Shown one piece after another: positions 8,261-55,021 of a DNA stretch of 64,000 bases. How positions within the stretch are numbered: the stretch's first letter is position 1; every line of letters begins with the position of its first letter. The stretch is from positions 889 to 64,888 of the forward strand of contig DAOSLF010000003.1 of NCBI GenBank assembly GCA_035368605.1, written 5' to 3'. Source of the stretch: Candidatus Omnitrophota bacterium (lineage in GTDB: Bacteria > Omnitrophota > Omnitrophia > Omnitrophales > Aquincolibacteriaceae). Position numbers and translations under genes: made by a program. The notes below the pieces were generated by a model. That model did not search any database. It had not been told where the DNA came from and saw only the letters and a list, made by a program, of their open reading frames with translations.

Positions 8261-8427
8261 CGATCAGAAAGATATCCGCGCGAAAGATCAAAGTACACGG
8301 ATTTAAAGCTTAAATTTTTTGGTTCTATCTCATAAGACGATTCATATCGCTTATAAATAGATTTTTGGGGCCGGGCAGCAAAAACCGCTAAAAAAGGATC
8401 AGGGATGGAACGGCGAGAAAGGCAATG

Positions 8428-10272: not shown

Positions 10273-10280
10273 AAAGGTCC

Positions 10281-10330
10281 GAAAAACAAAAACCCGGTAC
10301 CGGCTTTGGCCGGCACCGGGTTTTTTTATT
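10281..10330. terminator. Bidirectional rho-independent terminator between convergent FadL-like gene and gpsA
   Basis: Stem cccggtaccggc (10293-10304) / gccggcaccggg (10309-10320) with one A-C mismatch, loop tttg. T7 run at 10321-10327 and an A-rich run upstream, 10281-10292. Confidence 0.8.
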
Positions 10331-10347
10331 TTGGGAACGATCAGGTC

Positions 10348-31013: not shown

Positions 31014-31201
31014 GACCCCCTCCCTTTCTCGGTTAAGCGGCTCAGGCCGGCATCGTCTCACTCATGTTCATGCCGCCCCCTTTCACTTTTATCCACGGGC
31101 ATTCCTTCTGTTGTTTCATTTCTTTCCACTGCTCGGCCGTTGGGATGGCCTTGCGTTCGGCGTCCTTATGGATCGCAATCCACTTGGCCTGCGCCTTGAG
31201 A

Positions 31202-31246
31202 AATGGGGTCAGTCACCATTTCCCTGAAATGGTGACTGACCCCATT
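31202..31246. repeat. 45-nt perfect palindromic (REP-like) element copy 1, likely terminator of the hss-odc operon
   Basis: AATGGGGTCAGTCACCATTT CCCTG AAATGGTGACTGACCCCATT: 20-bp stem, 5-nt loop, 6 nt after the decarboxylase stop. A second copy lies at 46914-46958. Confidence 0.85.
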
Positions 31247-31252: not shown

Positions 31253-32434
31253 TTATACGAGAATGACCTTGGCAGGTTCGAAGCCGTTGAAATTGGGGAC
31301 AGCGCTCGCGCAGGAGTAGGCGCCGATATTCTTGACGTAAACAACATCCCCGACGAACAACTCGGGGAACTCTTCGTTCGATGTGAGGATATCAAGCGAA
31401 TCGCAGGTCGGGCCCGCGATCACGCTCATGGTCTTCTGCCCGCGTCGCAAGGTCTTGAACTCGTACTTGCAGTGATCGAACATCATCCCTGAAAAATCCT
31501 GGTAGATGCCATCATTGATGTAGTAGAAGTTCTTGTTGTCGCGGAAGGCCTTCCCCACCACCTGCGTCACGAGCACGCCGGAGGGACCCGCGAAAAACCG
31601 CCCCGGCTCGGCGATAAAATGAGTGGATTTCGGAAAGAGCTCCTTCATCTGCTTGCGGATCTGCGCGGCCATCCGCTCAAAGTTGATGCCGATCTCGTTT
31701 TCAAAGTGAGGTATCGGGAACCCGCCTCCGATATCGACGATCGAAAGCGGCATGCCGTTCTCTTTGGCCTCCCTGAAAATCCCGGCCGTGAGCTCGAGCG
31801 CCTGCAAATAATTTTCGACGTTCGTCGACTGCGAACCGACGTGAAAGCTCACGCCTTTCGGCACGAGCCCGAGGCTTTTCGCCTTCCGCAAGAGACAAAA
31901 CCCCTGGTCCGGTTCCGCGCCGAACTTAAGCGACAGCTGGACGACCGAGCCGCGGTTCTCGACGCGGATCCTCAAGATCACGTGCGCTCCGGGGAAACTC
32001 TCCGCGATCTTGTAAAGCTCGGCTTCGTTGTCGAAGGTCATGAGCCGGACGCGGCGCTTGCGGGCGGTGACGATATCCTCTTTCGACTTGATCGTATTCG
32101 CGAAGATGATGTGGCTCGGTTTCGCGCCCTGCTTGAGGACGAGTTTCATCTCGGCCGCGCTCGCGACGTCGAAGCAGGCCCCGAGCTTCGCGAAATATTT
32201 GACGATCCGCGGATGCGGATTGGCCTTGATCGCGTAATAAGGCGTCACTTCCGGCAGGGCCTTTCGAAAGCGGTTGAACTGCTTCTCGAGGACACTCTTG
32301 CGGATCAAGAGAAAGGGCGTCTTATGCTTTTTCAGCATTTGCCGGATCAGATTCTCGATACCCGAGGACTCCGTCGGCCTGACCGCCTTGTTTAAAAACG
32401 AAATGCTCCCACTCTCAAGAAGGGGCTGTTTCAT
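31253..32434 (-). CDS. PLP-dependent Orn/Lys/Arg decarboxylase (group IV, ornithine-decarboxylase-like)
   Basis: YYAIKANPHPRIV (PLP Lys), VDIGGGFPI, GPTCDSLD. Lies 6 nt downstream of hss. Confidence 0.85.
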   Translation of the reverse strand: MKQPLLESGSISFLNKAVRPTESSGIENLIRQMLKKHKTPFLLIRKSVLEKQFNRFRKALPEVTPYYAIKANPHPRIVKYFAKLGACFDVASAAEMKLVLKQGAKPSHIIFANTIKSKEDIVTARKRRVRLMTFDNEAELYKIAESFPGAHVILRIRVENRGSVVQLSLKFGAEPDQGFCLLRKAKSLGLVPKGVSFHVGSQSTNVENYLQALELTAGIFREAKENGMPLSIVDIGGGFPIPHFENEIGINFERMAAQIRKQMKELFPKSTHFIAEPGRFFAGPSGVLVTQVVGKAFRDNKNFYYINDGIYQDFSGMMFDHCKYEFKTLRRGQKTMSVIAGPTCDSLDILTSNEEFPELFVGDVVYVKNIGAYSCASAVPNFNGFEPAKVILV

Positions 32435-32440
32435 TCCGGA

Positions 32441-33943
32441 TCAACCCCTGTCGTCCACGAGGAAGGAGTTGAACTGCCAAAGCTCGTCCTTTTTCGGCGC
32501 CTTGGCCCCGAACCTCAGGTACTTCGTGTTGAGATTCTGAAGCGGCGTCCAGTCCGAGGGGATCGAAACGAACGGGACGATGTAAGGGGTCGCGAACTTC
32601 AGGATGAACTCGTGATCGATATCATCCGGGAGCAGAAAACCCTTGCGCGGATTGTCGATCATCCAGAGCGCCGCGGCGACCACGGAGACCGCCACCTGGA
32701 GAGTCGTCGCCTGCTGGTGCGCGACCAGTTTGCGCGTCGTGTGGATGTCGAGAAGCGAACCGCACCACCAGGACGTGAAATCATGTCCCATCAGGAGCAC
32801 ACCGAGCTCGTCGCGACCGTCAATGATATCGTCCGAAAGGATGCGCTGGTCCTCGTGCAGCTTGTACTGGCGCATCCGGAGCTCCTGCATCGAAAGGACC
32901 GCGGAATCGCAGGGGCAGTACGCGTAATGCACGGTCGGGCGGTACACGGCCTTGCCGTTCTTCCATACCGTGAGACGGTCGGAGATCGAAAACGCCTCGC
33001 CGTGGCGGATCACCATGCCGTTGATCTCCCCACAGGGCACCCACGAACGAACAAACGTGTTCATGCCAAGCGTGCCGAGGCAAATCTGGTTCTTCGGCCC
33101 CGTCCTGTGCTCATAGCCGTCCCTGGGAAGTTTCTTCTCGTGAGTCCCCCAGCCGAGTTCGGCCGGCGCGACACCCTCCTCATAGAACCCTTCGATCGAC
33201 CAGGTGTTCACGAACTCGTTGACGCGTTTCGGAACGTCCGTGACCTGCGTGTCTCGTTCGCTGATATGGATAACCTTGACGCCTGTTGTCTGCGCGAGCT
33301 TCGCGAAGTTCTTCCCGGCAAGAAAGCGCTCGAGGTTCTTCGCGCGCGGATCCCGCGGCTTTTCCTTCAGAATCTTCTTCGCGATATCGATCAGGGCCTT
33401 CTTTGTGAAATGGGACACAAGGCCGGGATTCGCGCCGTGGTCGACGATCGAAGTCGCGCCCTTCTCGTCGCCCCACTTCTCCTTCATGAGCTTGCGAAGC
33501 TTCATGTGGCGATAGTAGAGCGTGTATTGGGTCGGGTCAGTTCGCTTGTCGTCACGGTAAGGGTCCCATTCCTCGATCGAGGTGTTGACATAGAGGATGT
33601 TGTTTGCGCGACACCAGTCGAGGATCTCCCATGCGTCGATATTCCAGGCGAGGTCGATGATCATATCGCCGCACCCGACGTATTTCGCAAGAAGCTTCCT
33701 GTAATTGTCCCTCGTGACGCGATCGAAGACGTAGCGGACGCCTTTCTTCAGCGCGTCTTTTACACGGTGGCGGTTGTCGACGAAGTCCATAATCGTGATG
33801 TTCTTCGCGGGCATGTCGAAGTGACGCAGGATCAGCGGTGTCGCACATTGCGACACACCCCCGCACCCGATAATCAAGACCTTTCCGTTGAACTTCACGC
33901 GGGTCTCGGGGATGCTGGCTTTGACCTTAGGGTATTTGAACAC
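32441..33943 (-). CDS. hss: Homospermidine synthase (bacterial type)
   Basis: GTG start with GGAGGGTGA upstream. IIGCGGVSQCATPLILRHF, VTRDNYRKLL, GANPGLVSHF, ISERDTQ, FVNTWSIEGF, AELGWGTHE, VYRPTVHYAYCPCDSAV, DELGVLLMGH are collinear with bacterial HSS as I recall it (Blastochloris viridis). Confidence 0.85.
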   Translation of the reverse strand: MFKYPKVKASIPETRVKFNGKVLIIGCGGVSQCATPLILRHFDMPAKNITIMDFVDNRHRVKDALKKGVRYVFDRVTRDNYRKLLAKYVGCGDMIIDLAWNIDAWEILDWCRANNILYVNTSIEEWDPYRDDKRTDPTQYTLYYRHMKLRKLMKEKWGDEKGATSIVDHGANPGLVSHFTKKALIDIAKKILKEKPRDPRAKNLERFLAGKNFAKLAQTTGVKVIHISERDTQVTDVPKRVNEFVNTWSIEGFYEEGVAPAELGWGTHEKKLPRDGYEHRTGPKNQICLGTLGMNTFVRSWVPCGEINGMVIRHGEAFSISDRLTVWKNGKAVYRPTVHYAYCPCDSAVLSMQELRMRQYKLHEDQRILSDDIIDGRDELGVLLMGHDFTSWWCGSLLDIHTTRKLVAHQQATTLQVAVSVVAAALWMIDNPRKGFLLPDDIDHEFILKFATPYIVPFVSIPSDWTPLQNLNTKYLRFGAKAPKKDELWQFNSFLVDDRG

Positions 33944-34018
33944 GATCGCTCACCCTCCATTGTTTGAAATTTGACAATAACCGTCACAAAAAACTTTTTC
34001 CCGTGAATCGGAAACCGG

Positions 34019-34047
34019 ATATTACATCATATCGTTTTCTGCATCAA
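34019..34047 (-). promoter_or_regulatory. Putative promoter of the hss-decarboxylase operon
   Basis: Minus strand: TTGATG (34047-34042), 17 nt, TAATAT (34024-34019). Confidence 0.4.
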
Positions 34048-34135
34048 CCACTAAACCCCGAAAAAACATATTTTTTTAAAAATTCCCCGCCGAAGGCCGA
34101 GAGCCAGGCCTTCAGCCCCAAGCCGCCATTGCGCC

Positions 34136-34164
34136 TTGACGGAAGCGGGCTTTACGTGGAGAAT
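34136..34164 (+). promoter_or_regulatory. Putative promoter of the TIGR04073-like gene pair
   Basis: TTGACG (34136-34141), 17 nt, GAGAAT (34159-34164) with TG at -15/-14. SD AAGGAG at 34181. Confidence 0.35.
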
Positions 34165-34191
34165 CTTCCCGCTGTCCAAAAAGGAGCCTTT

Positions 34192-34527
34192 ATGAAAAAA
34201 ATTCTTTGCGCGTTCCTCGCCCTTTCTGTTCTGACATCCGCGACGCCGGTCTTCGCGAATTTCGACAATTTTCAGAAGAGCCCCTGGACCGAAGAGAAGA
34301 CCTATGTCGATAAATCGGTCGGCAAGCTCGCCTTCGGTCTCACGAACATCACAGCCGGCTGGACGGCCCTCTTCTTCGAAACCGCGAAACACGGCAACAT
34401 CTTCGCGGGCATCGCAAAGGGTGTCTGGCGCACCGGGACCAACACCGTGGGCGGCGTTCTCCATGCGGCTACCTTCCCCGTCGCGGTGGATATCCCCCTT
34501 CCTGACGGAGGCGTGAAATTCGAATGA
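34192..34527 (+). CDS. Small secreted protein resembling the exosortase system-associated TIGR04073 family
   Basis: ATG 34192 after AAAGGAG. Signal peptide MKKILCAFLALSVLTSATPVFA. The pattern KLAFGLTNITAGW...G...G...TFPV fits my recollection of TIGR04073 (KLxRGxxNxxxGWxE...TFPxP). Confidence 0.55.
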   Translation: MKKILCAFLALSVLTSATPVFANFDNFQKSPWTEEKTYVDKSVGKLAFGLTNITAGWTALFFETAKHGNIFAGIAKGVWRTGTNTVGGVLHAATFPVAVDIPLPDGGVKFE

Positions 34528-35135
34528 AACGCTTCCTCGCGCTCGCCCTTCTATTGATGATCGCTCTCGCTCCCTCCGCGGTCGCAACGCCATGGGCCGA
34601 AAAGGAAGGTTACGGCGAAAAGACCAAAGGGAAGCTTGCGTTCGGTCTCCGCAACACGTTCCTCGGCTGGACCGAAATGTTCTCGGAGCCGAAGCGCTAC
34701 AAGTTCGACCTCAAGAAGAGCGAATGGGAAGGGTTCTGCATGGGAATCTCGAAGTTCGTCTTTTACACGGCGGACGGTCTGATCCAGCTCGCGACCTTTC
34801 CCATTCCCGTCGACTTCCCCGACTTCGGGGAGGGAGCGGTCCCGGACCTCGGAAAGAAAAAGGAAGGGCCGCCGAAACCGTGGGAGGTTCACGGAAAATC
34901 AAGGTACAGCGTAATTCCCGCCTCGGAAGTCCCGGCCACGATCCGCGTCACCAAAGCGAAGTCACCCGCTCCCGTTCCGCCGCCGATCCAGACTCCCCCG
35001 ACCACTCCAACCTACGAGGTTGGAATGGTTCCCACGACTTCTCTAGCGGAAACCGCGGCCCAGGATACTTCCGGGGTTCCCGAACCGCCGACTCTTGTCG
35101 CGACGCCGGTCCCCGACCTGCCCTACTCGAAATAA
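34524..35135 (+). CDS. TIGR04073-like paralog with Pro-rich C-terminal extension
   Basis: ATGA overlap with the upstream paralog. GKLAFGLRNTFLGWTEMFSEP...LIQLATFPIPVDFP, then a low-complexity tail of about 100 aa (PAPVPPPIQTPPTTPTYEVG...). Confidence 0.6.
   Translation: MKRFLALALLLMIALAPSAVATPWAEKEGYGEKTKGKLAFGLRNTFLGWTEMFSEPKRYKFDLKKSEWEGFCMGISKFVFYTADGLIQLATFPIPVDFPDFGEGAVPDLGKKKEGPPKPWEVHGKSRYSVIPASEVPATIRVTKAKSPAPVPPPIQTPPTTPTYEVGMVPTTSLAETAAQDTSGVPEPPTLVATPVPDLPYSK
35001..35024. repeat. 24-nt hairpin repeat copy B, in-frame inside the Pro-rich tail of the 34524..35135 gene
   Basis: Identical to 28878-28901. Encodes TTPTYEVG. Confidence 0.8.
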
Positions 35136-35412
35136 AAACCGCACCCGGGGTTACCCGTTGCGGCGTTTGACTCACGAATCCTGTTCAGCTTCGGACCTGA
35201 TACTCGCGGGCGGAATTCCCTTCGCATTCCACAAAGGCATGCTTCAAGCATTCTCGATCACAACCTGGCAACAACCCTCCGATCCCCGATCCTCCGCCCG
35301 CGCGTGAACATACCCCGAGAAGACCAGGTCAGGGATCAGCACAGGCAGGAAAAAGCTCTGCGGGGACCGTTTGCACCGCATCACACCGATGCGATGTTCG
35401 CTCTTTTCCCTA

Positions 35413-36237
35413 TTACTCCGCCGCCAGAAATCCGTGGACGATGTTGACGAACACCTCGCGCTCTTCCATATGGATCGAGTGGGCCACGGCGGGGATGCAC
35501 CGGTAAACGCTGCCAGGGATCATCTTCGAAAGCGCCTCCGCTTCTTCCGGAAGGATCAGCACGTCCTCCCCGCCCTCGAGAACAAGCGTCCGGGCCTTGA
35601 TCCCTCCGAGACGCCCGCGTGCGTCGAACGAAGCGACCGCGTCAATCTGCCCCTTGAATCCGGGAAGCTGCTGCCGGTAACGATCGCGGATGCCCCGTTT
35701 CACGAGCGCCGCAACGAAACTTTCCCGGGAAAGAACGCTCGGCGAAAAAAGCCAGCGGGTCCATTCGCGGAGCCACGCCTCGAGATCCCCCCCCTGCGCA
35801 AGGTCCCTGTAAAATTTCAGGAAAAGCTCGTTGTTCCTCCCGGAAGAAACGGCCGCGGTGCTCGACAGGACGAGCCGGTCGACGCGCTCCGGATACCGGA
35901 TCGCAAGCTCCTGGGCAATAAAACCTCCGAGGGAATGACCCAGAACATGCGCCCGCCCGACCTTGAAATGATCGAGCACCCGCAGGACGTCCTCCGCCAT
36001 TTCGATGACGCTGTACGGCTTTCCCGGAATCGAACTGCGCCCCGCGCCCCGGTTGTCGAGCGTCAGGATGCGGTACTGCTTCGGAAGTCTCGCGATCACC
36101 CCGTTCCAGTTCGAGCTGTCGGTCCCAAGCCCCGCGATCAAAAGAAGCGGCGCCCCCTCCCCGCGCGACTCGCAGTAGATCGCGACCTCGCCCGGAAGTT
36201 TCTCCCCCTTATGCGTTCGTCGTTCGTGAGTGGTCAT
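35413..36237 (-). CDS. Alpha/beta-fold hydrolase
   Basis: LLLIAGLGTDSSNW, nucleophile elbow GHSLGG, C-terminal His context AVAHSIHME. ATG 36237 preferred over TTG 36291. Confidence 0.8.
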   Translation of the reverse strand: MTTHERRTHKGEKLPGEVAIYCESRGEGAPLLLIAGLGTDSSNWNGVIARLPKQYRILTLDNRGAGRSSIPGKPYSVIEMAEDVLRVLDHFKVGRAHVLGHSLGGFIAQELAIRYPERVDRLVLSSTAAVSSGRNNELFLKFYRDLAQGGDLEAWLREWTRWLFSPSVLSRESFVAALVKRGIRDRYRQQLPGFKGQIDAVASFDARGRLGGIKARTLVLEGGEDVLILPEEAEALSKMIPGSVYRCIPAVAHSIHMEEREVFVNIVHGFLAAE

Positions 36238-36396
36238 GGGTTTCACAGTCTGTCTTTTAGACTCTAGTCCCGCTAATTCCCGGTCGATCAAGTTCGTTTT
36301 TCAACAAAAACAATCCTGTTTTTGGAAAAATCCCGGATCAATGGCTAACAACCAGTTTCTGCCGGAAAACCACAAAGAATATCTACTATGGTTTCA

Positions 36397-36430
36397 ACAA
36401 AAAAGGCCGTGCCGAAACGCCGGCACGGCC
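36397..36430 (-). terminator. Rho-independent terminator ending the arg-lysA transcription unit
   Basis: Minus strand: GGCCGTGCCG-gcgttt-CGGCACGGCC (perfect 10-bp stem) followed by TTTTTTG, 17 nt after the lysA stop. Confidence 0.85.
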
Positions 36431-36446
36431 CCGATTTTCAAAAACC

Positions 36447-37727
36447 CTAAACACATTCACCCCGAACCAGGTCCTGGTAGGTCTCGCGTTTGCGGACGAT
36501 CCTGAAGGAGCTTCCCTTCACCATCACCTCGCAGGCGCGACCGCGGGAATTGTAGTTGGAACTCATCGTAAAACCGTAGGCACCCGCGGTCATAATCGTG
36601 AGGCATTCGCCGGGCCGCATTTCGGGAAGCTCCCGATCCTTCGCAAAAAAGTCCCCGCTTTCGCAGATGGGACCAACCACATCGTACACCCAGCGCCGGG
36701 CATCCGGGCGTTTCTGGACGGGCCAGATCGCGTGGTAGGCGTTGTAGAACGCGGGACGGATCAGGTCGTTCATACCCGCGTCCGTAATAAAAAATTTTTT
36801 CACGTTCGTTTCCTTCACATAGAGGATCTTCGCGGCGAGCACACCCGCGTTCCCCACGATGAAACGCCCGGGTTCGAAGATGACCTGGAACTTGCGTTTC
36901 CTGAGCAGGGGGAGGATCTTCGACGCGAACTCGTCTGCCGTCTGCGGGTCCTCGTCGCTATAGATGATGCCAAGGCCGCCGCCGAGGTTGAGGAACCTTA
37001 TCTTCATGCCCGCCGCCTCGATCTCATCGATAAATTCCAGTATCTTGCGGAATGCCTCGACAAAGGGCTCCCCCGTTTCGATCTGGGAACCGATATGGAC
37101 ATGAACACCCGTGAGCCGGGCGTGCGCGAGCGTCTTGCTCGCGAGGTAGATCGCACGCGCGCGTTCAAAGTCGATGCCGAACTTGGTCTCGGCCTTGCCG
37201 GTCGTGATGTAGTCGTGCGTGTGCGGGTCGACGTTCGGGTTGATGCGCAGCGACACATTCACTTTCTTTCGCATCTTCTTCGCGAGCGCGTTGATGCGCT
37301 CGAGCTCGGGCACGGACTCGACGTTGAAAAGGAGGATGCGAGCCCTGATCGCCTCGCGAATCTCCTCGTCCTTTTTTCCGACGCCGGCGTAGACGATCTT
37401 CCGGCCCTGGCATTTCACCTTCCTCGCGCGGAAGAGCTCGCCGCCTGAGACAATGTCGAGGCCGGAGCCCTTCGCGACGAGCGCCCTCAGGACCGCAAGG
37501 TTCGAATTGGCCTTCACGGAATAACAGATCAGGGGCCGCACGGAGCGGAACGCGCGCTGGAGCTTCGCGAGGTGGTCGGTGAGCGTCTTCGAGCTGTAGA
37601 TATACGCGGGCGTGCCGGTCTTCTCCAGGATCTTCCTGAGCGGGACATTCTCGCAGCAGAGCTCGCCCTTCCGGTTATAGCAGAAATCGTGCATCCGGGA
37701 TTCTTCTTCGAAATCGATTCGTGACAT
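36447..37727 (-). CDS. lysA: Diaminopimelate decarboxylase
   Basis: CYSVKANSNLAVLRAL (PLP Lys), LNLGGGLGI, GPICESGD. SD GAGGTAA. Confidence 0.92.
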   Translation of the reverse strand: MSRIDFEEESRMHDFCYNRKGELCCENVPLRKILEKTGTPAYIYSSKTLTDHLAKLQRAFRSVRPLICYSVKANSNLAVLRALVAKGSGLDIVSGGELFRARKVKCQGRKIVYAGVGKKDEEIREAIRARILLFNVESVPELERINALAKKMRKKVNVSLRINPNVDPHTHDYITTGKAETKFGIDFERARAIYLASKTLAHARLTGVHVHIGSQIETGEPFVEAFRKILEFIDEIEAAGMKIRFLNLGGGLGIIYSDEDPQTADEFASKILPLLRKRKFQVIFEPGRFIVGNAGVLAAKILYVKETNVKKFFITDAGMNDLIRPAFYNAYHAIWPVQKRPDARRWVYDVVGPICESGDFFAKDRELPEMRPGECLTIMTAGAYGFTMSSNYNSRGRACEVMVKGSSFRIVRKRETYQDLVRGECV

Positions 37728-37807
37728 AATCGTTACCTCGATTTTCCAGGATAGTTAACTCCCCTCTTTCCTGGGAGGGGCCGGGGGAGATTTCAGATTC
37801 CCCTGGA

Positions 37808-37830
37808 TTCCCCCTTGGCCGAAGGGGGAA
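37808..37830 (-). other. Intercistronic stem-loop directly after the argH stop
   Basis: TTCCCCCTT-CGGCC-AAGGGGGAA (9-bp stem) with no U tract. A second hairpin CCCCTC/GAGGGG lies at 37761-37780. Confidence 0.5.
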
Positions 37831-37833
37831 CGT

Positions 37834-39213
37834 TCAAGCAAGCAGTCTCGTCCAATAGTCCATCTGCTGACGGACCTTGAGGGGATGCGTGCTGCCGATG
37901 GTCTTCTTGCCACGGACCGAAGTCTCGGGGTCGAAGAGATCGTAAATATCCGCGCCGATCCCGGGGGAGAACCTCTTCCACTCCCTGAGCGAAAGTTCCC
38001 GCAGCCCCTTGCCCGACTCCGCGGCGAAGCGCACGGCCTGGCCGACGGTCGAGTGGGCCTCCGAGAACGGGACCTTCTTGCGGACGAGGTACTCAAGGAT
38101 GTCCGTGGCGAAGAGCGTGTCGTCCGCGACCGCTTTCGCCATCGCCTTTTTCTGCCAGGTTGCGGACGCGACCGTGAGTGCGAGCACTTCAAGGGCGATC
38201 GTCGTCTTGTGGACCGCATCGAATGCGCCGGGCTTATCCTCCTGGAGGTCCCGGTTATAAGAAAGCGGCAGTCCCTTCTGGACGGTCAGGATCGACTGCA
38301 GATGCCCGAAGATCACCCCGGCCCTGCCCCGCACGAGCTCAAAGACATCAGGGTTCTTCTTCTGCGGCATCAGGCTGGAGCCCGTCGCGAACGCGTCGTC
38401 GAGCTCGACATACCCGAATGCCTCCGAGTTCCAGAGGATGAAATCCTCGGCGAGCCTCGAAAGATGCATCCAGAGGATCGAAAGGTTCGCCAGAAATTCC
38501 GCAAGGAACCCCCGGTCGCTCACGGCGGTCATGCTGTTTCGGGCGATTTTTTCGAAGCCGAGCTCCTTCGCGAGGAATTTTTGATCGATCGGAAGCGCGG
38601 AACCCGCGAGCGCCGCGGAACCGATCGGGAGGATATTGACGCGCTTCAAGGTGTCGGCAAGTCGGGCCTTGTCCTCCTCGAGCATCTCGACATAGGCGAG
38701 GAGGTGATGCGCGAGCAGCACCGGCTGGGCCTTCCTCAGATGCGTCATGCCGGGGACAATGGCCCCCTGGGCTTTTTCCGCCGCGGCGACGAGCGCCTTC
38801 TGGAGACGCGAGGTTTCATACCGTATCACCGCGATCTTTTCCCGGAGGCAGACCCGGGTGGACGTGACGACGAGGTCGTTCCGGCTGCGGCCCGTGTGGA
38901 GTTTCTTCGCGACCGCGCCTGAGCGCTTTTCGAGTTCGCTTTGGATCAGGGTGTGAATGTCTTCGACCTCCGCGACATAGCGGGCGATGTCTTTTCCCTC
39001 GAGGTCCTTCTCGATCCGCGCGAGGCCTTTCAGGATCGCCTTCGATTCGGCCTGTGTGATGATCGCGGTCCGCGCGAGCATCTTCGCCCACGCCGCGTTT
39101 ACGGCGAGTTCCGCGTCAAAGAGCTCTTTGTCGACGGCGAGCGAATAGCTGAAGCATCTCAACGCCGGATGCATTTCCTTCTTGAACCGACCGCCCCAGA
39201 GTTTTTTGGACAT
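37834..39213 (-). CDS. argH: Argininosuccinate lyase
   Basis: MSKKLWGGRF, GRSRNDLV, GSSLMPQKKNPD signature. Confidence 0.95.
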   Translation of the reverse strand: MSKKLWGGRFKKEMHPALRCFSYSLAVDKELFDAELAVNAAWAKMLARTAIITQAESKAILKGLARIEKDLEGKDIARYVAEVEDIHTLIQSELEKRSGAVAKKLHTGRSRNDLVVTSTRVCLREKIAVIRYETSRLQKALVAAAEKAQGAIVPGMTHLRKAQPVLLAHHLLAYVEMLEEDKARLADTLKRVNILPIGSAALAGSALPIDQKFLAKELGFEKIARNSMTAVSDRGFLAEFLANLSILWMHLSRLAEDFILWNSEAFGYVELDDAFATGSSLMPQKKNPDVFELVRGRAGVIFGHLQSILTVQKGLPLSYNRDLQEDKPGAFDAVHKTTIALEVLALTVASATWQKKAMAKAVADDTLFATDILEYLVRKKVPFSEAHSTVGQAVRFAAESGKGLRELSLREWKRFSPGIGADIYDLFDPETSVRGKKTIGSTHPLKVRQQMDYWTRLLA

Positions 39214-39287
39214 ATTTACCCCCAGCTTGGAGCCCAGCGACGAGAGCCAAGAGCTGTTCCAGGCTCTTCGTTTTTCGCCCTTCGCGC

Positions 39288-40472
39288 TTAGCTTTTATAC
39301 ATTCCCTCGTACGGAAGGCCCCAGAGTTTCATGAACCCCGTCGCGGCCGTCCGGTCGAAGAGATCGCCCTTTGAATACGTCGCGAGTTTTTCCCGGTAGA
39401 GCGCAAACTTTGATTCGCGGCCCACGCAGATCGCGTGGCCCCGGTCGAGCTTGATCCTCACTTTTCCCGTGACACGCGCCTGGTTGGAGGCAAAGAAGGC
39501 GTCGAGGGCTTTTCTCAGGGGCGAGAACCAGAGCCCGAAATAGACAAGCTCGGCATATTTTTCGCTGAGCACGCGCTTGTAATGGATGAACTCGCGGTCC
39601 ATGACGAAGCCCTCGAGCTCGTCGTGGGCCTTCAGGAGCACATCCGCGGCCGGGGCCTCGTAGACCTCGCGGCTCTTGATCCCGACCAGGCGATTCTCGA
39701 TCATGTCAAAACGCCCGACGCCGTAGGCGCCCGCGACTGCATTGAGCCTGTCGATCAGCGTCACGAGCGGCATCTTCTTTCCGTCAAGGCTGACCGGCAC
39801 GCCCTTCACGAAACCGATCTCGATGTAGCGCGGCTTCTTCGGCGTCTTGTCACAGGCCTTTGTCATCACGTACGCGTCTTCCGGCGGCTCGAGCATGGGG
39901 TCTTCCAAAATCCCGGCCTCGATCGCGATCCCCCAGATGTTCTTGTCGATCGAGTAGATGCTTTTTTTCGTCACATCGATCGGGATACATTTCTCCCGCG
40001 CGTATTCGATCTCTTCTTCGCGGGTCTTAAACTCCCACTCGCGGAGCGGGGCAATGATCTTGAGATCCGGATTGAGCGCCCTCACCCCCACTTCAAGGCG
40101 GACCTGATCGTTGCCCTTGCCCGTGCAACCGTGCGCCACGGCCTCGGCGCCCTCGCGTTCAGCGACCTCGACCAGGTGCTTCGCGATCATGGGACGCCCG
40201 AGCGCGGTCGCGAGCGGATATTTCCCCTCGTAACGCGCGTGGGCCCAGATCGCGGGAAGGATGTAGTCCTTCGCGAACTCGTCCTTGAGATCGACGATGA
40301 AGGTCTTGAGCGCGCCGGCGGCTTTCGCGCGCTTGATCAGCTTGGTCTTGTCCTTGACTTCCCCGATGAACGCGGAAAAACAGATGACCTCGTAGCCGTA
40401 ATGTTCCTGCAGCCATTTCACGGCGCAGGAAGTGTCAAGTCCGCCTGAATATGCCAGCACTATTTTTTTCAT
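39288..40472 (-). CDS. argG: Argininosuccinate synthase
   Basis: KIVLAYSGGLDTS and full-length similarity. Confidence 0.95.
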   Translation of the reverse strand: MKKIVLAYSGGLDTSCAVKWLQEHYGYEVICFSAFIGEVKDKTKLIKRAKAAGALKTFIVDLKDEFAKDYILPAIWAHARYEGKYPLATALGRPMIAKHLVEVAEREGAEAVAHGCTGKGNDQVRLEVGVRALNPDLKIIAPLREWEFKTREEEIEYAREKCIPIDVTKKSIYSIDKNIWGIAIEAGILEDPMLEPPEDAYVMTKACDKTPKKPRYIEIGFVKGVPVSLDGKKMPLVTLIDRLNAVAGAYGVGRFDMIENRLVGIKSREVYEAPAADVLLKAHDELEGFVMDREFIHYKRVLSEKYAELVYFGLWFSPLRKALDAFFASNQARVTGKVRIKLDRGHAICVGRESKFALYREKLATYSKGDLFDRTAATGFMKLWGLPYEGMYKS

Positions 40473-40541
40473 TGTTTCATCCTTTTCAATGACTGAAGGC
40501 CGGAAATGTTCCGGTTTTTCAAAAATCGATCGTCCCCAGCC

Positions 40542-41471
40542 TTATTGGATCGCTCCTTCGTTAAAGAGATGAAGCAAAACGGCCTTCTGGATGTGAAGCC
40601 GGTTCTCGGTTTCGTCGAATACGATGCAGTTCTTGCTTTCCATGACACTGTCGGTGATCTCCTCGCCGCGGTGCGCCGGCAGGCAGTGCATGATGAGCAC
40701 GTTTTTCCTGGCCTTCGCGACGAGCTCCCTATTGACCTGCATGCCCTGAAAGTCCTTCAGCTTCTTCTTCCGCATCGCCTCTTCGCCCATACTGACCCAG
40801 ACATCGGTGTAAATCGCATCCGCTCCGGCCACGGCCCTGGCGGGGTCAAAGAACCCTTCGATCACGGCCCCCGTCTTTTTCGCGATTTCCCGCGCGGTCC
40901 TCACGATCTTGGCGTCGGGCTGGTATTTCTTCGGCGTCGCGTAACGGATCTTCGCGCCCAGTTTCGCCGCGACAAGGATCAGCGAGTGCAGGACATTGTT
41001 GCCATCCCCTACGAACGCGAGGACGGGGTCTTTTTCGGCGGGGATCTTCTCATACAGCGTCATGTAATCCGCAAGCGCCTGGCAGGGATGCTCCTTGTCG
41101 CTCAAGCCGTTGATGACGGGTTTGTCGAAGTAGTCCCGGAACTCGGTAATTGTCCAGTGCGAAAAGGTTCGCATGACGACCCCCGCGAGGTACCGGTTGA
41201 GGACGCGCGCGACATCCCGCACCTCTTCCCGCACGCCGAGCTGGATGTCCTCGGGTCCGAGGTAGATCACACCGCCTCCCATCGCAAAGATGCCCGCCTG
41301 GAACGAAACCCAGGTCCTGGTCGACGGTTTCTCGAAAATGAAACCGAACATGCGTCCCTCGAGAACGTTCCGGAAATCCTGCGGCCGGGCCTTGAGATCC
41401 GCCGCAAGTGCGAACAACTTTTTGATCTCGTCCGTGCTGAGGTCGTTGATCGAGATCAATGAGTCGAACAT
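40542..41471 (-). CDS. argF: Ornithine carbamoyltransferase
   Basis: FEKPSTRTWVSF, HCLPAHRGEE. Confidence 0.92.
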   Translation of the reverse strand: MFDSLISINDLSTDEIKKLFALAADLKARPQDFRNVLEGRMFGFIFEKPSTRTWVSFQAGIFAMGGGVIYLGPEDIQLGVREEVRDVARVLNRYLAGVVMRTFSHWTITEFRDYFDKPVINGLSDKEHPCQALADYMTLYEKIPAEKDPVLAFVGDGNNVLHSLILVAAKLGAKIRYATPKKYQPDAKIVRTAREIAKKTGAVIEGFFDPARAVAGADAIYTDVWVSMGEEAMRKKKLKDFQGMQVNRELVAKARKNVLIMHCLPAHRGEEITDSVMESKNCIVFDETENRLHIQKAVLLHLFNEGAIQ

Positions 41472-42679
41472 GAGCAGTCTTCCTGTTTTTTCGACAGCTT
41501 CGCGAATACCTGGTCAAGGATCGCGACGGCCCTGCGGACCTCTTTCGCGGTCACGTTGAGCGCCGGCAGGAACCGTAGCACGTCGCCCTGGGTCGAATTG
41601 ACCAGAAGCCCCCGGTCGCGCGCCTCCTGGGCGTAGGGCGCGGACGGTGCGCTGAGCTTGAGGGCGCACATAAGGGCCATGCCGCGATATTCCTCGATCA
41701 CGGGATACTTTTCCCGGAGCTTCTCGAACTCGATCTTGAGGAGTTCCCCCATCCGGACCGTATTCGTGAGCAGTTTTTCCTTGCGAATCGCCTTAAAAAC
41801 GGCCAGGGACGCCGCGCACACGAGCGGGCTCCCGCCGAAGGTCGAGCCGTGCATGCCGGCCGTCAGAACCTCTTTTCTGATCCGTTTGTTCACGACAAAC
41901 GCACCGATCGGAACACCGCCGCCCAAAGCCTTCGAAAGCGTCATAATATCCGGTTCGACGCCGTGGTAATGCTGGTAGGCGAACATCTTGCCCGTCCGCC
42001 CCATACCGGTCTGCACTTCATCCAGGATGAGAAGCATATCCCGCTCGTCGCAAAGCTGGCGCAGGCCCTGCATGAATTCCGGCTTCGCGACGTGGATTCC
42101 GCCCTCCCCCTGGATCGGCTCGAGCATGATCGCCACAGTCTTCGGCGTGAGAAGTTTTTTCACGGACTCAAGATCGTTGAACTCGGCGTAGTGGAACTTC
42201 TCGATCAGCGGCTCGAAACCCTGATGAAACTTGTCCTGGCCGGTCGCGGTCATCGCTGCGATCGTCCTTCCGTGGAAGGACCGCTTCATCGTGATGATCT
42301 CGTAGCGACCGGTCTCGCCACCGTACTTTTTGGCGAACTTGATGGCACCCTCGTTCGCCTCGGCGCCGGAATTGCCGAAGAATACGCGTCCCGGGAAGGA
42401 GGCTTTCACAATCTCGCTGGCGAGCTCCGACTGCTTGATGTTGAGGAAGTTGTTCGGGATGTGGAGCATCGTCCGGGACTGGTGTTTGATCGCGTTGATC
42501 ACGGCCGGATGGCAGTGCCCCAGGCACGACACGCCCCAGCCCGGGAAGAAATCAAGATACTCCTTGCCTTCCAGGTCCCAGACCCGCGATCCTTTCCCCT
42601 TCACGAGACAGACCGGCAGCCGCGTGTAAGTGGGCATCACGTATTCGTTATAAAGTTTCTGGACGTCTGTGGTTTTCAT
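41456..42679 (-). CDS. argD: Acetylornithine aminotransferase
   Basis: Class-III aminotransferase: LILDEVQTGMGRTGKMFAYQH, TLSKALGGG. Overlaps argF by 16 nt. Confidence 0.9.
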   Translation of the reverse strand: MKTTDVQKLYNEYVMPTYTRLPVCLVKGKGSRVWDLEGKEYLDFFPGWGVSCLGHCHPAVINAIKHQSRTMLHIPNNFLNIKQSELASEIVKASFPGRVFFGNSGAEANEGAIKFAKKYGGETGRYEIITMKRSFHGRTIAAMTATGQDKFHQGFEPLIEKFHYAEFNDLESVKKLLTPKTVAIMLEPIQGEGGIHVAKPEFMQGLRQLCDERDMLLILDEVQTGMGRTGKMFAYQHYHGVEPDIMTLSKALGGGVPIGAFVVNKRIRKEVLTAGMHGSTFGGSPLVCAASLAVFKAIRKEKLLTNTVRMGELLKIEFEKLREKYPVIEEYRGMALMCALKLSAPSAPYAQEARDRGLLVNSTQGDVLRFLPALNVTAKEVRRAVAILDQVFAKLSKKQEDCSCSTH

Positions 42680-42718
42680 AGCCCTGTGTTCAGTTCTCAG
42701 CCCTCGGCATTCAGCCTT

Positions 42719-42746
42719 TACTGATAGCTGATCGCTGATGGCTGAT
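42719..42746 (-). repeat. Four tandem heptamers (plus strand NNCTGAT; minus strand AUCAGNN) in the argB-argD spacer
   Basis: Plus strand: TACTGAT AGCTGAT CGCTGAT GGCTGAT. On the mRNA these are AUCAGCC AUCAGCG AUCAGCU AUCAGUA, followed by two complementary GGCUGA motifs (42695-42716). Confidence 0.7.
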
Positions 42747-42748
42747 CC

Positions 42749-43603: not shown

Positions 43604-43677
43604 TTTTTCGTGTGGAGCGCAGCGTGTTCGGCGTGGAGTTTTCCCCTACGCTCTACACTGCACGCTCTTCCCTTTCT

Positions 43678-46002: not shown

Positions 46003-46058
46003 CTGACGTCGGTTTCTCCTTTGCGGGAATAAAGGGACAGCCTCCTTGAGAACGCGTT

Positions 46059-46087
46059 ATTATAGGAATAGCTCTATCCTTTGTCAA
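46059..46087 (-). promoter_or_regulatory. Consensus sigma70 promoter of the arg-lysA operon
   Basis: Minus strand: TTGACA (46087-46082), 17 nt, TATAAT (46064-46059). About a 50-nt leader with AAAGGAGAA before argC ATG 46002. Confidence 0.7.
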
Positions 46088-46175
46088 TTTAAGAAGTTAC
46101 GTCAAAAACCGGGGATGGACCGCGGCTCAAAACACTCATAACTCCATACCACGAATCAGGTTACGTGTATTTTGA

Positions 46176-46204
46176 TTGACATTCAGAGGTTAAATCTCTA
46201 TCTT
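46176..46204 (+). promoter_or_regulatory. Putative rnc promoter (near-leaderless)
   Basis: TTGACA (46176-46181), 17 nt, TATCTT (46199-46204). ATG codons at 46205 and 46214 with no SD. Confidence 0.5.
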
Positions 46205-46915
46205 ATGAAATCCATGAAAAAGACACCTCAGATCACCAAGTCCCTTCTCAAGAAGTCATTCGGCCTGACGGTCAAAAAAGTCCCTCTTTACGAAGCCGCG
46301 CTGACACACCCTTCCTTCCGGCATGAAAACCAGATCAAGGCCAAACTCGAGGATTTCGACCGTCTGGAATTTCTCGGGGACTCGATCCTGAACGAAGTGA
46401 TCTGCCAGAGGATCTACGCGGATTTTCCGGACGCCGACGAGGGCATGCTTTCGAAGCTCCGGTCGATACTCGTTTCGCAGAAGATCCTCAGCCGCATCGC
46501 AGCAAAATTCAAGCTTCACAATCTGATCCGGCTCGGGAACAGCCTGGGCCAGGCCATGAAAACGCCGTATAAATTCAAACTGATGACAGACTCGATGGAA
46601 TCGATCTTTGCGGCGGTCTTTTTCGATCTCGGCCGGAAAAAAACGGAGGCATTCATCCTGAAACATTACGCGGAATATATCGACGCCAAACGGCTATTCC
46701 GCCTTGATCCCAACCCGAAGAGCACGCTCCAGGAACTGACGCTCAAGAAATGGCAGAAACTTCCCCAATACACCCACAAGTTCGGTCCGAAAGGCGTGAC
46801 TACGACAGTGTCCATAGACCGCCGGCGCAAGGCTTCGGGATTTCACAAGATCAAGAAGGAATCGGAGCTGAAGGCGGCACGGGCCCTTCTGAAACTTCTC
46901 CGGCAGGAACAATAA
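46205..46915 (+). CDS. rnc: Ribonuclease III
   Basis: AALTHPSF...ERLEFLGDSILN signature and a C-terminal dsRBD. The start is ATG 46205, or 46214 if the mRNA is leaderless. Confidence 0.9.
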   Translation: MKSMKKTPQITKSLLKKSFGLTVKKVPLYEAALTHPSFRHENQIKAKLEDFDRLEFLGDSILNEVICQRIYADFPDADEGMLSKLRSILVSQKILSRIAAKFKLHNLIRLGNSLGQAMKTPYKFKLMTDSMESIFAAVFFDLGRKKTEAFILKHYAEYIDAKRLFRLDPNPKSTLQELTLKKWQKLPQYTHKFGPKGVTTTVSIDRRRKASGFHKIKKESELKAARALLKLLRQEQ

Positions 46916-46958
46916 TGGGGTCAGTCACCGTTTCCCTAAAACGGTGACTGACCCCATT
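46914..46958. repeat. 45-nt perfect palindromic (REP-like) element copy 2, bidirectional terminator between rnc and asmA
   Basis: AATGGGGTCAGTCACCGTTT CCCTA AAACGGTGACTGACCCCATT. It overlaps the rnc TAA stop and ends 3 nt before the asmA TAG stop. It differs from copy 1 by a compensatory A-T to G-C pair. Confidence 0.85.
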
Positions 46959-46961
46959 ATT

Positions 46962-49445
46962 CTAATCCAGAACGAGTTCGAAAAGGAGAGCGCGGGCTTT
47001 TTTGTTCCGGATCTTTTCGACGAGTTCTTCGACTTGCGCGGGGTCCGGTTTGATTTCGGGAGCGGATAAGGGGCCCGTGACCAGCATCGTGATCGGCCCC
47101 AGATGGGCACGCGTTTCCCTCCGAAAGGTTCCAGCCATCTCCGGAAAAATCTCCGCGGCAAGGGTCGTCGGAAAAAAAACATCCCACCGGAAATTCGTCA
47201 GGCCATCGAAACCAAGCGTACCTTCCCCAGCCACGACATAATCGGAACCCCTGGTCAGGAAGTTATCCGTCATGACCTTGCCGTCGAACAGACTCCAATT
47301 GAAATCCAGTTCGCTGAACGCGCCCGGGTCTTTCAACCGTTCACGGATACCGGAGAAAGGCGTAATAGTCGCCACAGCGCCGGGCAGATCAATGAAATTG
47401 ACCCGGCCGTTCGAAAGAGTAAAACGACCCTTTCCGCCGAGCAAACCAGCCCAGTTGTCTTTCCCCCAGCCATTTCCATGCAATGAGAACTTCAGGGTAA
47501 GCGATCCCGTCATCGGCGGCTGTTCCTGGCCCGAGCGGGTCAGAAAGGATGCAAAGTCCAGCCCCTTGGCCTCGCCTTCACAAAGGTACCCGATCGGTTT
47601 GGCTGAAAGGTCCAGCGACCCCGCCAGATCCAGCATTCCGCCATAAACCTGGGCGTGGAACTTGGGAACATCCCATTGCCCGTCCGAATAAGCCAGTTCC
47701 GCCGAAAAATCCTTGAGCGTCTGCCCCGAGGGGAACAAGTCTCCGATCGAGGTCTTCACATGGTCGAGCACGTCCCTGCCGGAGGCGAGATCGGCCTTTT
47801 TCCGGAAAAGCGCCATGACCGCGTCCCAGAATTCTTCCACTCGCAATTCCCCCGAAGAAAGACGGGCCCAGACCGCACTCTTCACACCCGGCTGGGTGAC
47901 CTTCAGGTCCGCGACCAGAGCGCTCCCTCCGATCTCGAACTTCATCTCCCGCCCTTCGAGCATGAGCGGGCTGTAATCGAAGGAAAAATTCGCGTTCCCG
48001 ACGCCCTTGCCGTCCTTGCCCGTCAAAGCGCCGTTCTCGATCGTCACATGAAAGATCTGCTCGGTCTTGTCAAAATGCCGGAGGTCCCCTTTCCAGTTCG
48101 CAAGCAACTTGGCATCACCGCGGACCTGGTATCCCTGGAGGGCGGGAACGAATTTCTCCCAGCCCGTCATGGAGAATTTGTTGGTCAGGAGATTCAACTG
48201 GCCGATGGCCGTCGCCATATCAAGGTCGGTCAGGTTCCCTTTGAGCGACATCTCCTGGAACCGCACGGAGAAATCTCCCGAAAGCACCGATCCCTTTTGG
48301 ACAAGATAATCAAAGGTCACGAGGAACGGAACATCCTTTGGCTTCGCGAAATAATTCCCGTATGTAAGAAGCGCAGGGCCGAAATCGAGATTAAGGTGGA
48401 GCGAAAGATGATCGAGGGTTCCTTCCAGGCTCAGGTTCCATTGGCTCATCCCCGAAAAACCAATCTGGAGCGGGAGGGCGTTCTCGACTCCGGGCCAGCA
48501 GGTGACGAGCTTTTCAAGCGCCACTTCCCTGGATGTAAAAAAGAGGCTTGGAATCTCACCCGTCCCGAGCTTGACGGTGCCGTTCGACTCGACCACCCCG
48601 AACGGGAAACGGAAAGAGGATTGGCTGACGGTCAGTTCCTCTGCCGACGCATTCCAGGCGCCGGTGATGTCCATATCGAGATCAAAAGGTTCCGGAGCAT
48701 TCCATAGTTGGCCGTTCAAAACCTCATAACTCAGCCCCACGATCCGCCCGGTCCCCGAGAAATTCATCGCGGCAACCTCGGGCTGTTTTTTGACCTCAAA
48801 GGAACCGTCCAGGATACCGTTCTTGAAAGCAAAAAAACGTCCCGCCTCACCCGCCATTTTTCCGGGGTTCACAAGCGGAAGTCCCTTGAAATCGATCAAT
48901 AACCGGACATTCGTTTTATTCCAGTCCGGTTTTTCGACCGACGGAATGACCACATGGCCTTTGACGCCAAGCGCTTCGGCCCGGTCACCGACATCGCTGG
49001 TCATCTGGACCGGGATGGGAAGGTTCGGGCGGATCGCACCCATTTTCAGCGCGACGTTGCGGAACTGGAGCGGACCGAGCACCGGGAACCAGGGAATGCC
49101 GGCATCAGCCTGGCCGCCGAAGACACAGATGCCGGACGGCTCAACCCTGCCCCACGCCATCGGGATGATATTGAAATCAAAACGTATCGAATCCGCGCGG
49201 ATCGTCGCGGATCCGTCCGTGAACGTCAGGGAAGGTTTCAAGAGAGAAATGGCCGGCTGCGGAAGGAATTTGATCTCGATCCCGTCATGGGAGACGAGCC
49301 CGCCGGAGACATTCTGGATTTTCTGGATGAGATAATCCTGAACCCTGGGCGAGCGGAGGAGACGATCGGACTGGAACCAGACAAAAGCGGCAAAGGCGAC
49401 CGCGGCGAGGAAAAGTAACAGGAAAAAGCGTGCGCCTTTCTTCAT
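46962..49445 (-). CDS. AsmA-family outer-membrane biogenesis protein
   Basis: N-terminal anchor MKKGARFFLLLFLAAVAFAAFVW. AsmA-like N-terminal (IEIKFLPQPAISLLKPSLTF) and C-terminal (DGKVMTDNFLTRGSDYVVAGEGTLGFDG) regions. Confidence 0.7.
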   Translation of the reverse strand: MKKGARFFLLLFLAAVAFAAFVWFQSDRLLRSPRVQDYLIQKIQNVSGGLVSHDGIEIKFLPQPAISLLKPSLTFTDGSATIRADSIRFDFNIIPMAWGRVEPSGICVFGGQADAGIPWFPVLGPLQFRNVALKMGAIRPNLPIPVQMTSDVGDRAEALGVKGHVVIPSVEKPDWNKTNVRLLIDFKGLPLVNPGKMAGEAGRFFAFKNGILDGSFEVKKQPEVAAMNFSGTGRIVGLSYEVLNGQLWNAPEPFDLDMDITGAWNASAEELTVSQSSFRFPFGVVESNGTVKLGTGEIPSLFFTSREVALEKLVTCWPGVENALPLQIGFSGMSQWNLSLEGTLDHLSLHLNLDFGPALLTYGNYFAKPKDVPFLVTFDYLVQKGSVLSGDFSVRFQEMSLKGNLTDLDMATAIGQLNLLTNKFSMTGWEKFVPALQGYQVRGDAKLLANWKGDLRHFDKTEQIFHVTIENGALTGKDGKGVGNANFSFDYSPLMLEGREMKFEIGGSALVADLKVTQPGVKSAVWARLSSGELRVEEFWDAVMALFRKKADLASGRDVLDHVKTSIGDLFPSGQTLKDFSAELAYSDGQWDVPKFHAQVYGGMLDLAGSLDLSAKPIGYLCEGEAKGLDFASFLTRSGQEQPPMTGSLTLKFSLHGNGWGKDNWAGLLGGKGRFTLSNGRVNFIDLPGAVATITPFSGIRERLKDPGAFSELDFNWSLFDGKVMTDNFLTRGSDYVVAGEGTLGFDGLTNFRWDVFFPTTLAAEIFPEMAGTFRRETRAHLGPITMLVTGPLSAPEIKPDPAQVEELVEKIRNKKARALLFELVLD

Positions 49446-54917: not shown

Positions 54918-55021
54918 GACCGCACCCCCTTGTTTTCATTTTTTTATATCCTTAAAGCTCATCATTAAATTCTTTTTTAAATATCTTTAAAAGTATTCCA
55001 AAAAAACCGTCGGCAAGCCGA

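Follow-up and report, generated by a model that had tools for sequence, protein, structure and literature searches.

Repetitive extragenic palindromes (REPs) have been reported at the 3′ ends of genes (Di Nocera et al. 2013, PMC3733652), and published REP hairpins have either a basal stem of 7-20 nt or two shorter stems joined by a bulge of 1-3 nt. Among the RAYTs (tyrosine transposases associated with REPs), group 1 is the largest and most widespread, and the 16-mers flanking its genes occur about 12 times per replicon on average (Bertels et al. 2017, PMC5581495). Quentin et al. (2018, PMC6006769) equate this group with TnpA_Y1 subclass 2.1 and with the TIRYTs, and list subclass 2.1 without REPs. 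The inverted repeats reported to flank TIRYT genes carry the motif GGGGWSAS; Di Nocera et al. (PMC3733652) describe some of them as self-complementary, as overlapping the 3′ end of the transposase open reading frame (ORF) and as forming moderately abundant families. Such TIRtron/TIRYT repeats probably correspond to TnpA_Y1 subclass 2.1 and RAYT group 1. Here we examine two long palindromes in a stretch of 64,000 nt (64 kb) from a Candidatus Omnitrophota genome, referred to below as the window, and the repeat family to which they belong, copies of which bracket a RAYT gene in related Omnitrophota. The copies are most likely RAYT-dependent repeats of the REP/REPIN type in Omnitrophota, with a cognate class-2 Y1 (HUH) transposase of the RAYT/TIRYT kind, that now stand as hairpins at gene 3′ ends. 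The family is previously undescribed and otherwise ordinary within the known REP/RAYT class.

A palindromic repeat family and an associated RAYT in Omnitrophota

The two palindromes and their foot motifs are located in the window as follows.

31202..31246, no strand assigned: REP-type palindrome copy 1, 20-bp perfect arms and 5-nt loop
31205..31212, plus strand: foot motif GGGGTCAG of copy 1, fitting GGGGWSAS, with its inverted partner CTGACCCC at 31236-31243
46911..46961, no strand assigned: REP-type palindrome copy 2, 23-bp perfect arms and loop CCCTA
46917..46924, plus strand: foot motif GGGGTCAG of copy 2, with its inverted partner at 46948-46955

Copy 1 reads AATGGGGTCAGTCACCATTT-CCCTG-AAATGGTGACTGACCCCATT on the plus strand (31202-31246), a 45-nt palindrome with a perfect 20-bp stem, exactly as an earlier sequence-only reading of this DNA had described it. 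The core that copy 2 has in common with it (46914-46958) reads AATGGGGTCAGTCACCGTTT-CCCTA-AAACGGTGACTGACCCCATT, and a repeat finder extends the perfect arms of copy 2 to 23 nt each (46911-46933 and 46939-46961). The same program gives 94% identity between the copies over 48 nt. They differ at three positions, comprising one stem pair (A-T versus G-C) and one loop base (G in copy 1, A in copy 2), which agrees with the compensatory difference and the loop change previously noted. The earlier description of both flanks as conserved holds for the right flank (ATTATT in both copies), whereas AATAAT on the left is found in copy 2 alone. The 45-nt element is laid out as two inverted 20-nt units (AAT/AAA-GGGGTCAGTCACC-N-TTT) around a 5-nt spacer.

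The palindromes are a real, non-chance feature. A 15-nt arm occurs four times in the window compared with an expected 0.38, a number reached in none of 100 shuffles, and all four arms belong to the two hairpins. Relaxing the search to 1-3 mismatches returned 17 matches in the window against 16.9 expected, with no additional copies and no excess of solitary 13-mers. No other perfect stem in the 64 kb exceeds 9 bp, and as RNA copies 1 and 2 fold at −37.5 to −44.9 kcal/mol (z-scores −8.2 to −9.3). No Rfam family matched anywhere in the window at gathering thresholds, a literature search with the arm sequence returned unrelated primer matches only, and no direct repeats that might represent a target-site duplication were seen around the copies.

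Exact matches of its proteins assign the window to Ca. Omnitrophica bacterium ADurb.Bin314, an organism present in many assemblies of anaerobic-digester type. The repeat is not confined to this genome, as the sequence-only reading had supposed. Scanning one genome per species with the pattern GGTCAGTCACC-N(5-25)-GGTGACTGACC identified 13 copies of identical spacing in Omnitrophica RIFOXYB12_FULL_50_7, where a 14th, diverged copy was found later, and single copies of the same spacing in two further assemblies. A metagenome scan in which each arm's outer 10 nt served as the only anchor yielded 113 matches, of which more than 25 are of the same type as the window repeat and many others represent families with the foot GGGGTCAGTC but differing inner stems. 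The same 39-nt core is thus present in several Omnitrophota species of 48-58% G+C, and in three of them at one orthologous site, between rnc and asmA. Family members carry the loop in both orientations (CCCTA and TAGGG) and have a foot of the form AAA...TTT or AAT...ATT. At 18 of the 31 non-redundant family sites, an ORF of at least 100 aa has its stop codon no more than 15 nt from the core, in several cases between tightly convergent genes, in keeping with the position reported for REPs in general. The earlier view of a dispersed, REP-like palindrome at gene 3′ ends is supported. Loop orientation relative to the direction of the abutting gene was tallied at about 9 to 5, with no clear bias. 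Viral contigs gave no hairpin matches and hence no sign of a phage origin.

Pairing and covariation were counted on an alignment of 28 non-redundant copies, in which 92.4% of cells are paired. Six stem pairs have changed on both sides, and none of 500 shuffles reached either that number or the covariation score. Independent compensatory events include A-T to T-A in L149 (L numbers are our labels for the sequences recovered), T-A to G-C in the L020 copy at 1500, and A-T to G-C in window copy 2; a change from C-G to T-A in L059 was seen by eye only, in a copy outside the 28-copy alignment. The argument for selection on the hairpin had originally been built on the single compensatory difference between the two window copies. 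This difference is weak evidence because the position is unpaired in 13 of the 28 copies, including those flanking the RAYT gene; other stem positions do show compensatory changes on both sides. Beyond a foot of 3-4 nt, the flank columns are neither paired nor repeated.

A RAYT-type gene, which the sequence-only reading had suggested looking for, is present in related Omnitrophota genomes with the palindrome on both sides. In L020 (RIFOXYB12) and the metagenome contigs L043 and L077, two copies of the repeat in the same loop orientation, about 620-720 nt apart from start to start, bracket an ORF of 226 aa; the downstream hairpin codes with its first arm for the last residues of this ORF and holds the stop codon in its loop. 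The protein matches Pfam Y1_Tnp (1e-15), the NCBIfam equivalog REP_Tyr_transpos for REP-associated tyrosine transposases (83.8 bits; cut-off 80) and E. coli TnpA_REP (PDB 4ER8; 1.3e-7, with the HuH motif aligned). It contains the motifs NHFH, WQ and YVEANP, a serine-rich stretch after the Y motif, and an extension of about 80 aa that ends in a conserved GLESTLRPRGRP motif. YVEANP conforms to the class-2 signature Y---NP of Quentin et al. (2018, PMC6006769). For subclass 2.1, Table 1 of that study gives NHVH or NH[YF]H, W[EQ], YIELNP or Y[IV]HLNP, a median length of 238 aa and a C-terminal extension. Judged by motifs and length only, and not by phylogeny, the 226-aa protein fits subclass 2.1 best, with a Y motif that also resembles subclass 2.5 (YI[VI]ANP).

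More than 2,500 homologues of this RAYT were found, many of them named Omnitrophica proteins, and a C-terminal GLESTLRPRGRP motif is conserved among them. Many are encoded on very short contigs only (~1-2 kb), which is consistent with flanking repeats breaking assemblies around RAYT genes. The gene order radC-RAYT-HAD hydrolase is kept in three genomes, in which RadC is 89-96% identical and the RAYT 58-75% identical. Judging from this conservation, the RAYT appears to behave as a domesticated gene, syntenic and chromosomally fixed, in the way reported for RAYTs that are vertically inherited and domesticated (PMC5581495).

Repeat and enzyme vary together. Upstream of the RAYT of L149 (75% identical), the flank reads GGGGTCTGTCACC...GGTGACAGACCCC, which contains the compensatory A-T to T-A change, and the downstream copy is a half-converted intermediate. 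The RAYT of L150, at the same locus and 58-61% identical, is flanked by an unrelated hairpin, AAAGGTGCCAGGCATAATTA..., and the more distant RAYT of L103 (36% identical) abuts a hairpin with a GGGGTCAGTC foot and another inner stem. The RAYT of L155/L156 (54% identical) lies between simple inverted repeats of the GGGGACAG type, GGGGACAGGCTG and CAGCCTGTCCCC. The feet of the repeats flanking these relatives' RAYTs, whether of GGGGTCAG or GGGGACAG type, agree with GGGGWSAS, the motif that Di Nocera et al. (2013, PMC3733652) reported from the inverted repeats around TIRYT genes. Directly after the right inverted repeat of the L155/L156 RAYT (~2180-2260) is a tandem array (TTTTGTCCCCCC)n of 2-4 units, the number of which varies between samples.

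Further palindromes were encountered in the same scans. L061 and L074, from a sample that also holds the window's organism, have a similar G+C content (0.58) and carry additional copies; they may come from the same genome. A Solirubrobacterales metagenome-assembled genome (L003 2605-2644, L014 6633-6672 and L016 3124-3163) contains a longer palindrome family, CACCACAGGGGTCAGTCACCGTGCGGTGCGCACCGCACGGTGACTGACCCCCTGTGGTG, with the same 13-mer foot and three copies in two contigs of this actinobacterial genome; it may be the repeat of a related RAYT. An abundant sister family, AAT-GGGGTCAGTCCCCAATAT-NNN-ATATTGGGGACTGACCCC-ATT, occurs in contigs from peat or bog-type metagenomes (L041, L044, L068, L091, L094, L095, L107, L115, L120 and others), where it also has a 40-nt variant, GGGGTCAGTCCCCATTGATTACGAATTGGGGACTGACCCC, and often extra solitary TGACCCCATT words nearby. 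L011, labelled Deltaproteobacteria bacterium AM_0619, carries AATGGGGTCAGTCACCTTTCAATATTGAAAGGTGACTGACCCCAAT at 326-361, which has 16 nt of foot and arm in common with the window element but another inner stem, and which is either a related repeat in another phylum or lies on a mis-binned contig.

Gene context, retention and turnover of the window copies

The genes adjoining the two copies are the following.

31253..32434, minus strand: ornithine/lysine (pyridoxal phosphate-dependent) decarboxylase gene, 393 aa, Pfam Orn_Arg_deC_N and Orn_DAP_Arg_deC; its 3′ end abuts copy 1
46172..46915, plus strand: RNase III gene rnc, Pfam Ribonuclease_3 and dsrm; stop codon within the stem of copy 2
46962..49445, minus strand: AsmA-family gene asmA, Pfam AsmA, convergent with rnc; stop codon directly adjoining copy 2

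Both window copies combine a G+C-rich stem-loop with a position at a gene 3′ end. Past the decarboxylase stop codon TAA (31253-31255, minus strand), copy 1 follows after 6 nt, as had been stated from the sequence; the next gene on the minus strand, about 190 nt downstream of copy 1, codes for a membrane protein of 74 aa and has dapF beyond it. Copy 2 occupies the entire 46-nt spacer between the convergent genes rnc (stop at 46913-46915, inside the stem) and asmA (stop at 46962-46964). In both cases the distance from stop codon to hairpin falls within about 15 nt.

Copy 2 is retained at the orthologous rnc/asmA site in three species, namely those of the window, of RIFOXYB12 (L005 and L048) and of L049. 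The proteins encoded around this site are 62-65% (Rnc), 45-50% (AsmA) and 71% (Asd) identical and the flanking DNA is heavily diverged, while the 39-nt core shows only 1-2 differences among the species and keeps the same orientation relative to rnc in all three. Within the species this site is a hot spot of change: in L038 and L040, 8 of the 10-11 strain differences over ~1.1 kb fall in copy 2, and consist of a loop inversion plus three transitions in one arm that leave three mismatches. Such a pattern is more suggestive of template switching, or of conversion by another copy, than of point mutations that arose independently.

Ten independent contigs of the species carry copy 1 unchanged; one strain shows a 1-nt deletion in the loop, and the sister species ADurb.Bin277 lacks the copy. 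The whole 450-nt spacer of ADurb.Bin277 cannot be aligned, and insertion of copy 1 is consequently indistinguishable from replacement.

Two observations concern the surroundings of the copies. At 10279-10334, a conventional bidirectional terminator-like hairpin (AAAAACCCGGTACCGGC / GCCGGCACCGGGTTTTTTT) with strong T-runs shows no sequence relationship to the repeat, which means that ordinary terminators are in use in this genome as well. Copy 1 stands in a long co-directional run of arginine, polyamine and lysine genes (31253-43900, minus strand; mirrored in L025), comprising argD-like, ornithine carbamoyltransferase, argG, argH, lysA-type decarboxylase, homospermidine-synthase-like, ornithine decarboxylase, dapF, dapA and dapB genes, at the point where the polyamine pair gives way to the dap genes.

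Origin of the repeats and competing explanations

The family resembles the TIRtrons/TIRYTs (PMC3733652) in having a RAYT-like Y1 gene between non-GTAG inverted repeats, a GGGGWSAS motif (here GGGGTCAG), self-complementary repeats that overlap the 3′ end of the transposase ORF, and moderately abundant dispersed families. The approximately 12 occurrences per replicon given for group 1 (PMC5581495) are similar to the at least 13 copies in RIFOXYB12. It differs in that Omnitrophota lie outside those surveys, in that each flank is a complete, near-perfect 20-bp hairpin instead of a single arm, and in that Quentin et al. (PMC6006769) associate no REP with subclass 2.1. Like the classical REP/BIME (bacterial interspersed mosaic element) and REPIN-RAYT systems, which belong to group 2 in E. 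coli and group 3 in Pseudomonas and Stenotrophomonas, it consists of short extragenic palindromes behind genes and has an apparently single-copy HUH/Y1 enzyme between repeats at a fixed, vertically inherited locus, with repeats that change with the enzyme lineage; two inverted units with a spacer are also the arrangement of a REPIN. Its perfect stem of 20-23 bp is much longer than in classical REPs, however, its copy number is low, and the RAYT-flanking copies share their loop orientation. The subterminal hairpins of IS200/IS605 elements, served by TnpA_IS200, are comparable in combining a Y1 HUH enzyme, single-strand DNA hairpins and guide nucleotides at the foot, but the present enzyme has the class-2 Y---NP rather than Y---Q and is syntenic and apparently single-copy, and the hairpins are dispersed without a gene.

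By analogy with the TnpA_REP proteins of E. coli, Stenotrophomonas and Marinomonas and with the IS200/IS605 family, we infer a mechanism for RAYT activity on the hairpin. The repeat would be unable to move alone and would rely on the apparently single-copy, chromosomally fixed RAYT. The 45-nt palindrome, consisting of left repeat, 5 nt and right repeat, may be regarded as a miniature, lacking a gene, of the inverted repeats on either side of the RAYT, and as an analogue of a REPIN. On single-stranded DNA the element would fold into a hairpin, which the RAYT would bind together with the foot GGGGTCAG, placed as the classical GTAG guide is; cutting and rejoining beside the hairpin would then seed, remove or homogenise copies at low frequency. 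In RNA, the copies would make up the very end of the decarboxylase, rnc and asmA transcripts, where a 20-23-bp hairpin would most likely block 3′ exonucleases and stop or attenuate transcription on both strands. With only 0-6 nt between stop codon and stem, the hairpin may also slow translation termination. Liang, Rudd and Deutscher reportedly found in 2015 that, in E. coli, a REP within about 15 nt of the stop codon lowers translation of the gene upstream of it.

A number of observations weigh against a RAYT-dependent REP-type origin. Neither copy 1, copy 2 nor the family consensus contains the GTAG/CTAC tag or its GT[AG]G variant, nor CGTC/GACG, the foot being AAA/AAT-GGGGTCAG. E. coli TnpA_REP needs a bulge in its substrate (PMC8266576), whereas the stems described here are long, perfect and without a bulge. 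No RAYT gene or remnant was found in the window, either by tblastn or with a family hidden Markov model (HMM) run unfiltered on its six frames and built from RAYT homologues longer than 200 aa together with the RIFOXYB12 protein, and the radC/HAD locus does not lie within the 64 kb. The 8 kb beyond the right end of the window likewise contain no RAYT and no further copy, and none of 10 NCBI-sourced RAYT homologues or the contexts of P0002, P0014 and P0019 come from the window's species or its samples. With two copies in ~72 kb (window plus right extension), the repeat is sparse compared with classical REPs. The pattern scans demanded an exact match of both arms, and the family sample is therefore biased toward well-paired copies. 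For copy 1 no clean empty site was found, ADurb.Bin277 offering only its unalignable spacer. A terminator-pattern scan flagged copy 1 solely on the strand antisense to the decarboxylase gene and copy 2 solely on the asmA strand, and the U-tracts beside both copies are weak in the window genome; copy 1 may therefore be a stabiliser or attenuator within an operon rather than a full stop. Finally, we know of no biochemistry on RAYT group 1 or subclass 2.1.

One candidate remnant beside copy 1 was rejected. The RAYT C-terminus aligned by tblastn with 31156-31224 (23 aa, 52% identical, E = 4.8), a similarity that arises from the hairpin being read as protein; the family HMM gave no match there, and its best match in the window (E = 2.9) lies elsewhere.

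Ordinary Rho-independent terminators that evolved independently, resemble each other by coincidence and have no link to a repeat family or transposase would account for very stable hairpins at gene 3′ ends, each flagged as terminator-like on one strand, and for the A-runs and T-runs found on both sides of the RIFOXYB12 copies. Independent origin would not, however, give different sites, and species of 48-58% G+C, a 39-nt sequence in common, nor place that sequence on both sides of a RAYT gene, and the other terminator-like hairpins of the window have 9-bp stems of unrelated sequence. The sequence identity across sites and the flanking of the RAYT therefore refute terminators as the sole explanation, which we regard as very unlikely; termination can be an added role of the repeats, not an alternative origin. 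A different selective explanation is that the copies are kept mainly as double-stranded RNA substrates of RNase III, the rnc copy being autoregulatory, through cutting of the protective hairpin on the enzyme's own message, and the decarboxylase copy setting differential decay within its operon. A perfect RNA helix of 20-23 bp, about two turns, has the size of a classical RNase III substrate, and the rnc-adjacent copy is kept in three species, in constant orientation relative to rnc, despite 62-65% protein identity. Against this, most family members adjoin unrelated genes, one strain combines an identical RNase III protein with a flipped loop and three mismatches at this site, and a requirement for bidirectional termination where two genes converge closely explains retention equally well. 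An RNase III substrate role for the rnc copy is speculative, and as the main reason for keeping the family it is unlikely.

Two other explanations were considered. A miniature inverted-repeat transposable element (MITE), derived from and moved by a conventional insertion sequence of the DDE type, would similarly have two terminal inverted repeats with almost nothing between them. We consider this highly improbable, as no target-site duplication is present and the flanks consist of the element's own foot, which is A/T-rich and partly complementary, 45 nt is below the usual size of a MITE, and the sole transposase found flanked by the element is of the Y1/HUH type. The possibility that GGGGTCAGTCACC is an uptake signal of this species group, in the manner of the inverted terminator pairs formed by the DNA uptake sequence of Neisseria and the uptake signal sequence of Haemophilus, accords with a short conserved 13-mer that occurs clade-wide, in related species, in inverted pairs directly behind genes. 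Known uptake sequences occur about once per kb, however, whereas the present element has a density of about one per 30 kb, no solitary arms, no excess of the solitary 13-mer and a fixed spacing and loop, and it flanks a Y1 transposase gene; uptake signals therefore have next to no probability. CRISPR repeats, integron attC sites and dif-type sites were dropped from consideration, there being no arrays and no matching consensus, and the copies being dispersed.

A stronger form of the RAYT-dependent origin can be offered only tentatively. The palindrome would be the working substrate of a group-1/subclass-2.1 RAYT, with a GGGGWSAS foot in place of the GTAG guide, and would additionally have been co-opted by the host at rnc/asmA as an indispensable bidirectional terminator, as an autoregulatory RNase III hairpin, or as both. 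In this combined form the proposal is doubtful.

A literature search returned no paper pairing REPs with Omnitrophota, and a RAYT-dependent origin of the palindromes would extend the REP/RAYT (TIRYT) partnership to this largely uncultured phylum of very small cells. It would also link a family of perfect hairpins to a RAYT group that surveys describe as lacking REPs, and the 45-nt hairpin with its GGGGTCAG foot would be a simple substrate for DNA recognition by the least understood RAYT group. The repeat can in addition be used as an annotation landmark for gene 3′ ends. The finding overturns nothing established, and its general interest is moderate to low.

Other features of the window

Upstream of rnc (~46046-46141), the rnc-carrying short-read contigs L036 and L037 end at 46067 and 46072, within 5 nt of each other, about 100 nt from the rnc start and away from the palindrome, while other contigs end at 45799-45991; a G/A polymorphism is present at 46125. 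At the left end of the window, a stop-free frame of at least 2,754 codons on the minus strand (2-8263) runs off the window and represents a giant gene. Within a 1,386-codon frame on the same strand (50778-54935) lie three tandem units of 888 nt (51366-53189). The first two are 96% identical over 300 nt, and over their first 48 nt units 2 and 3 share 77% and 71% identity with unit 1. From its sequence, this array seems to be the product of a recent duplication of a domain within a large protein.

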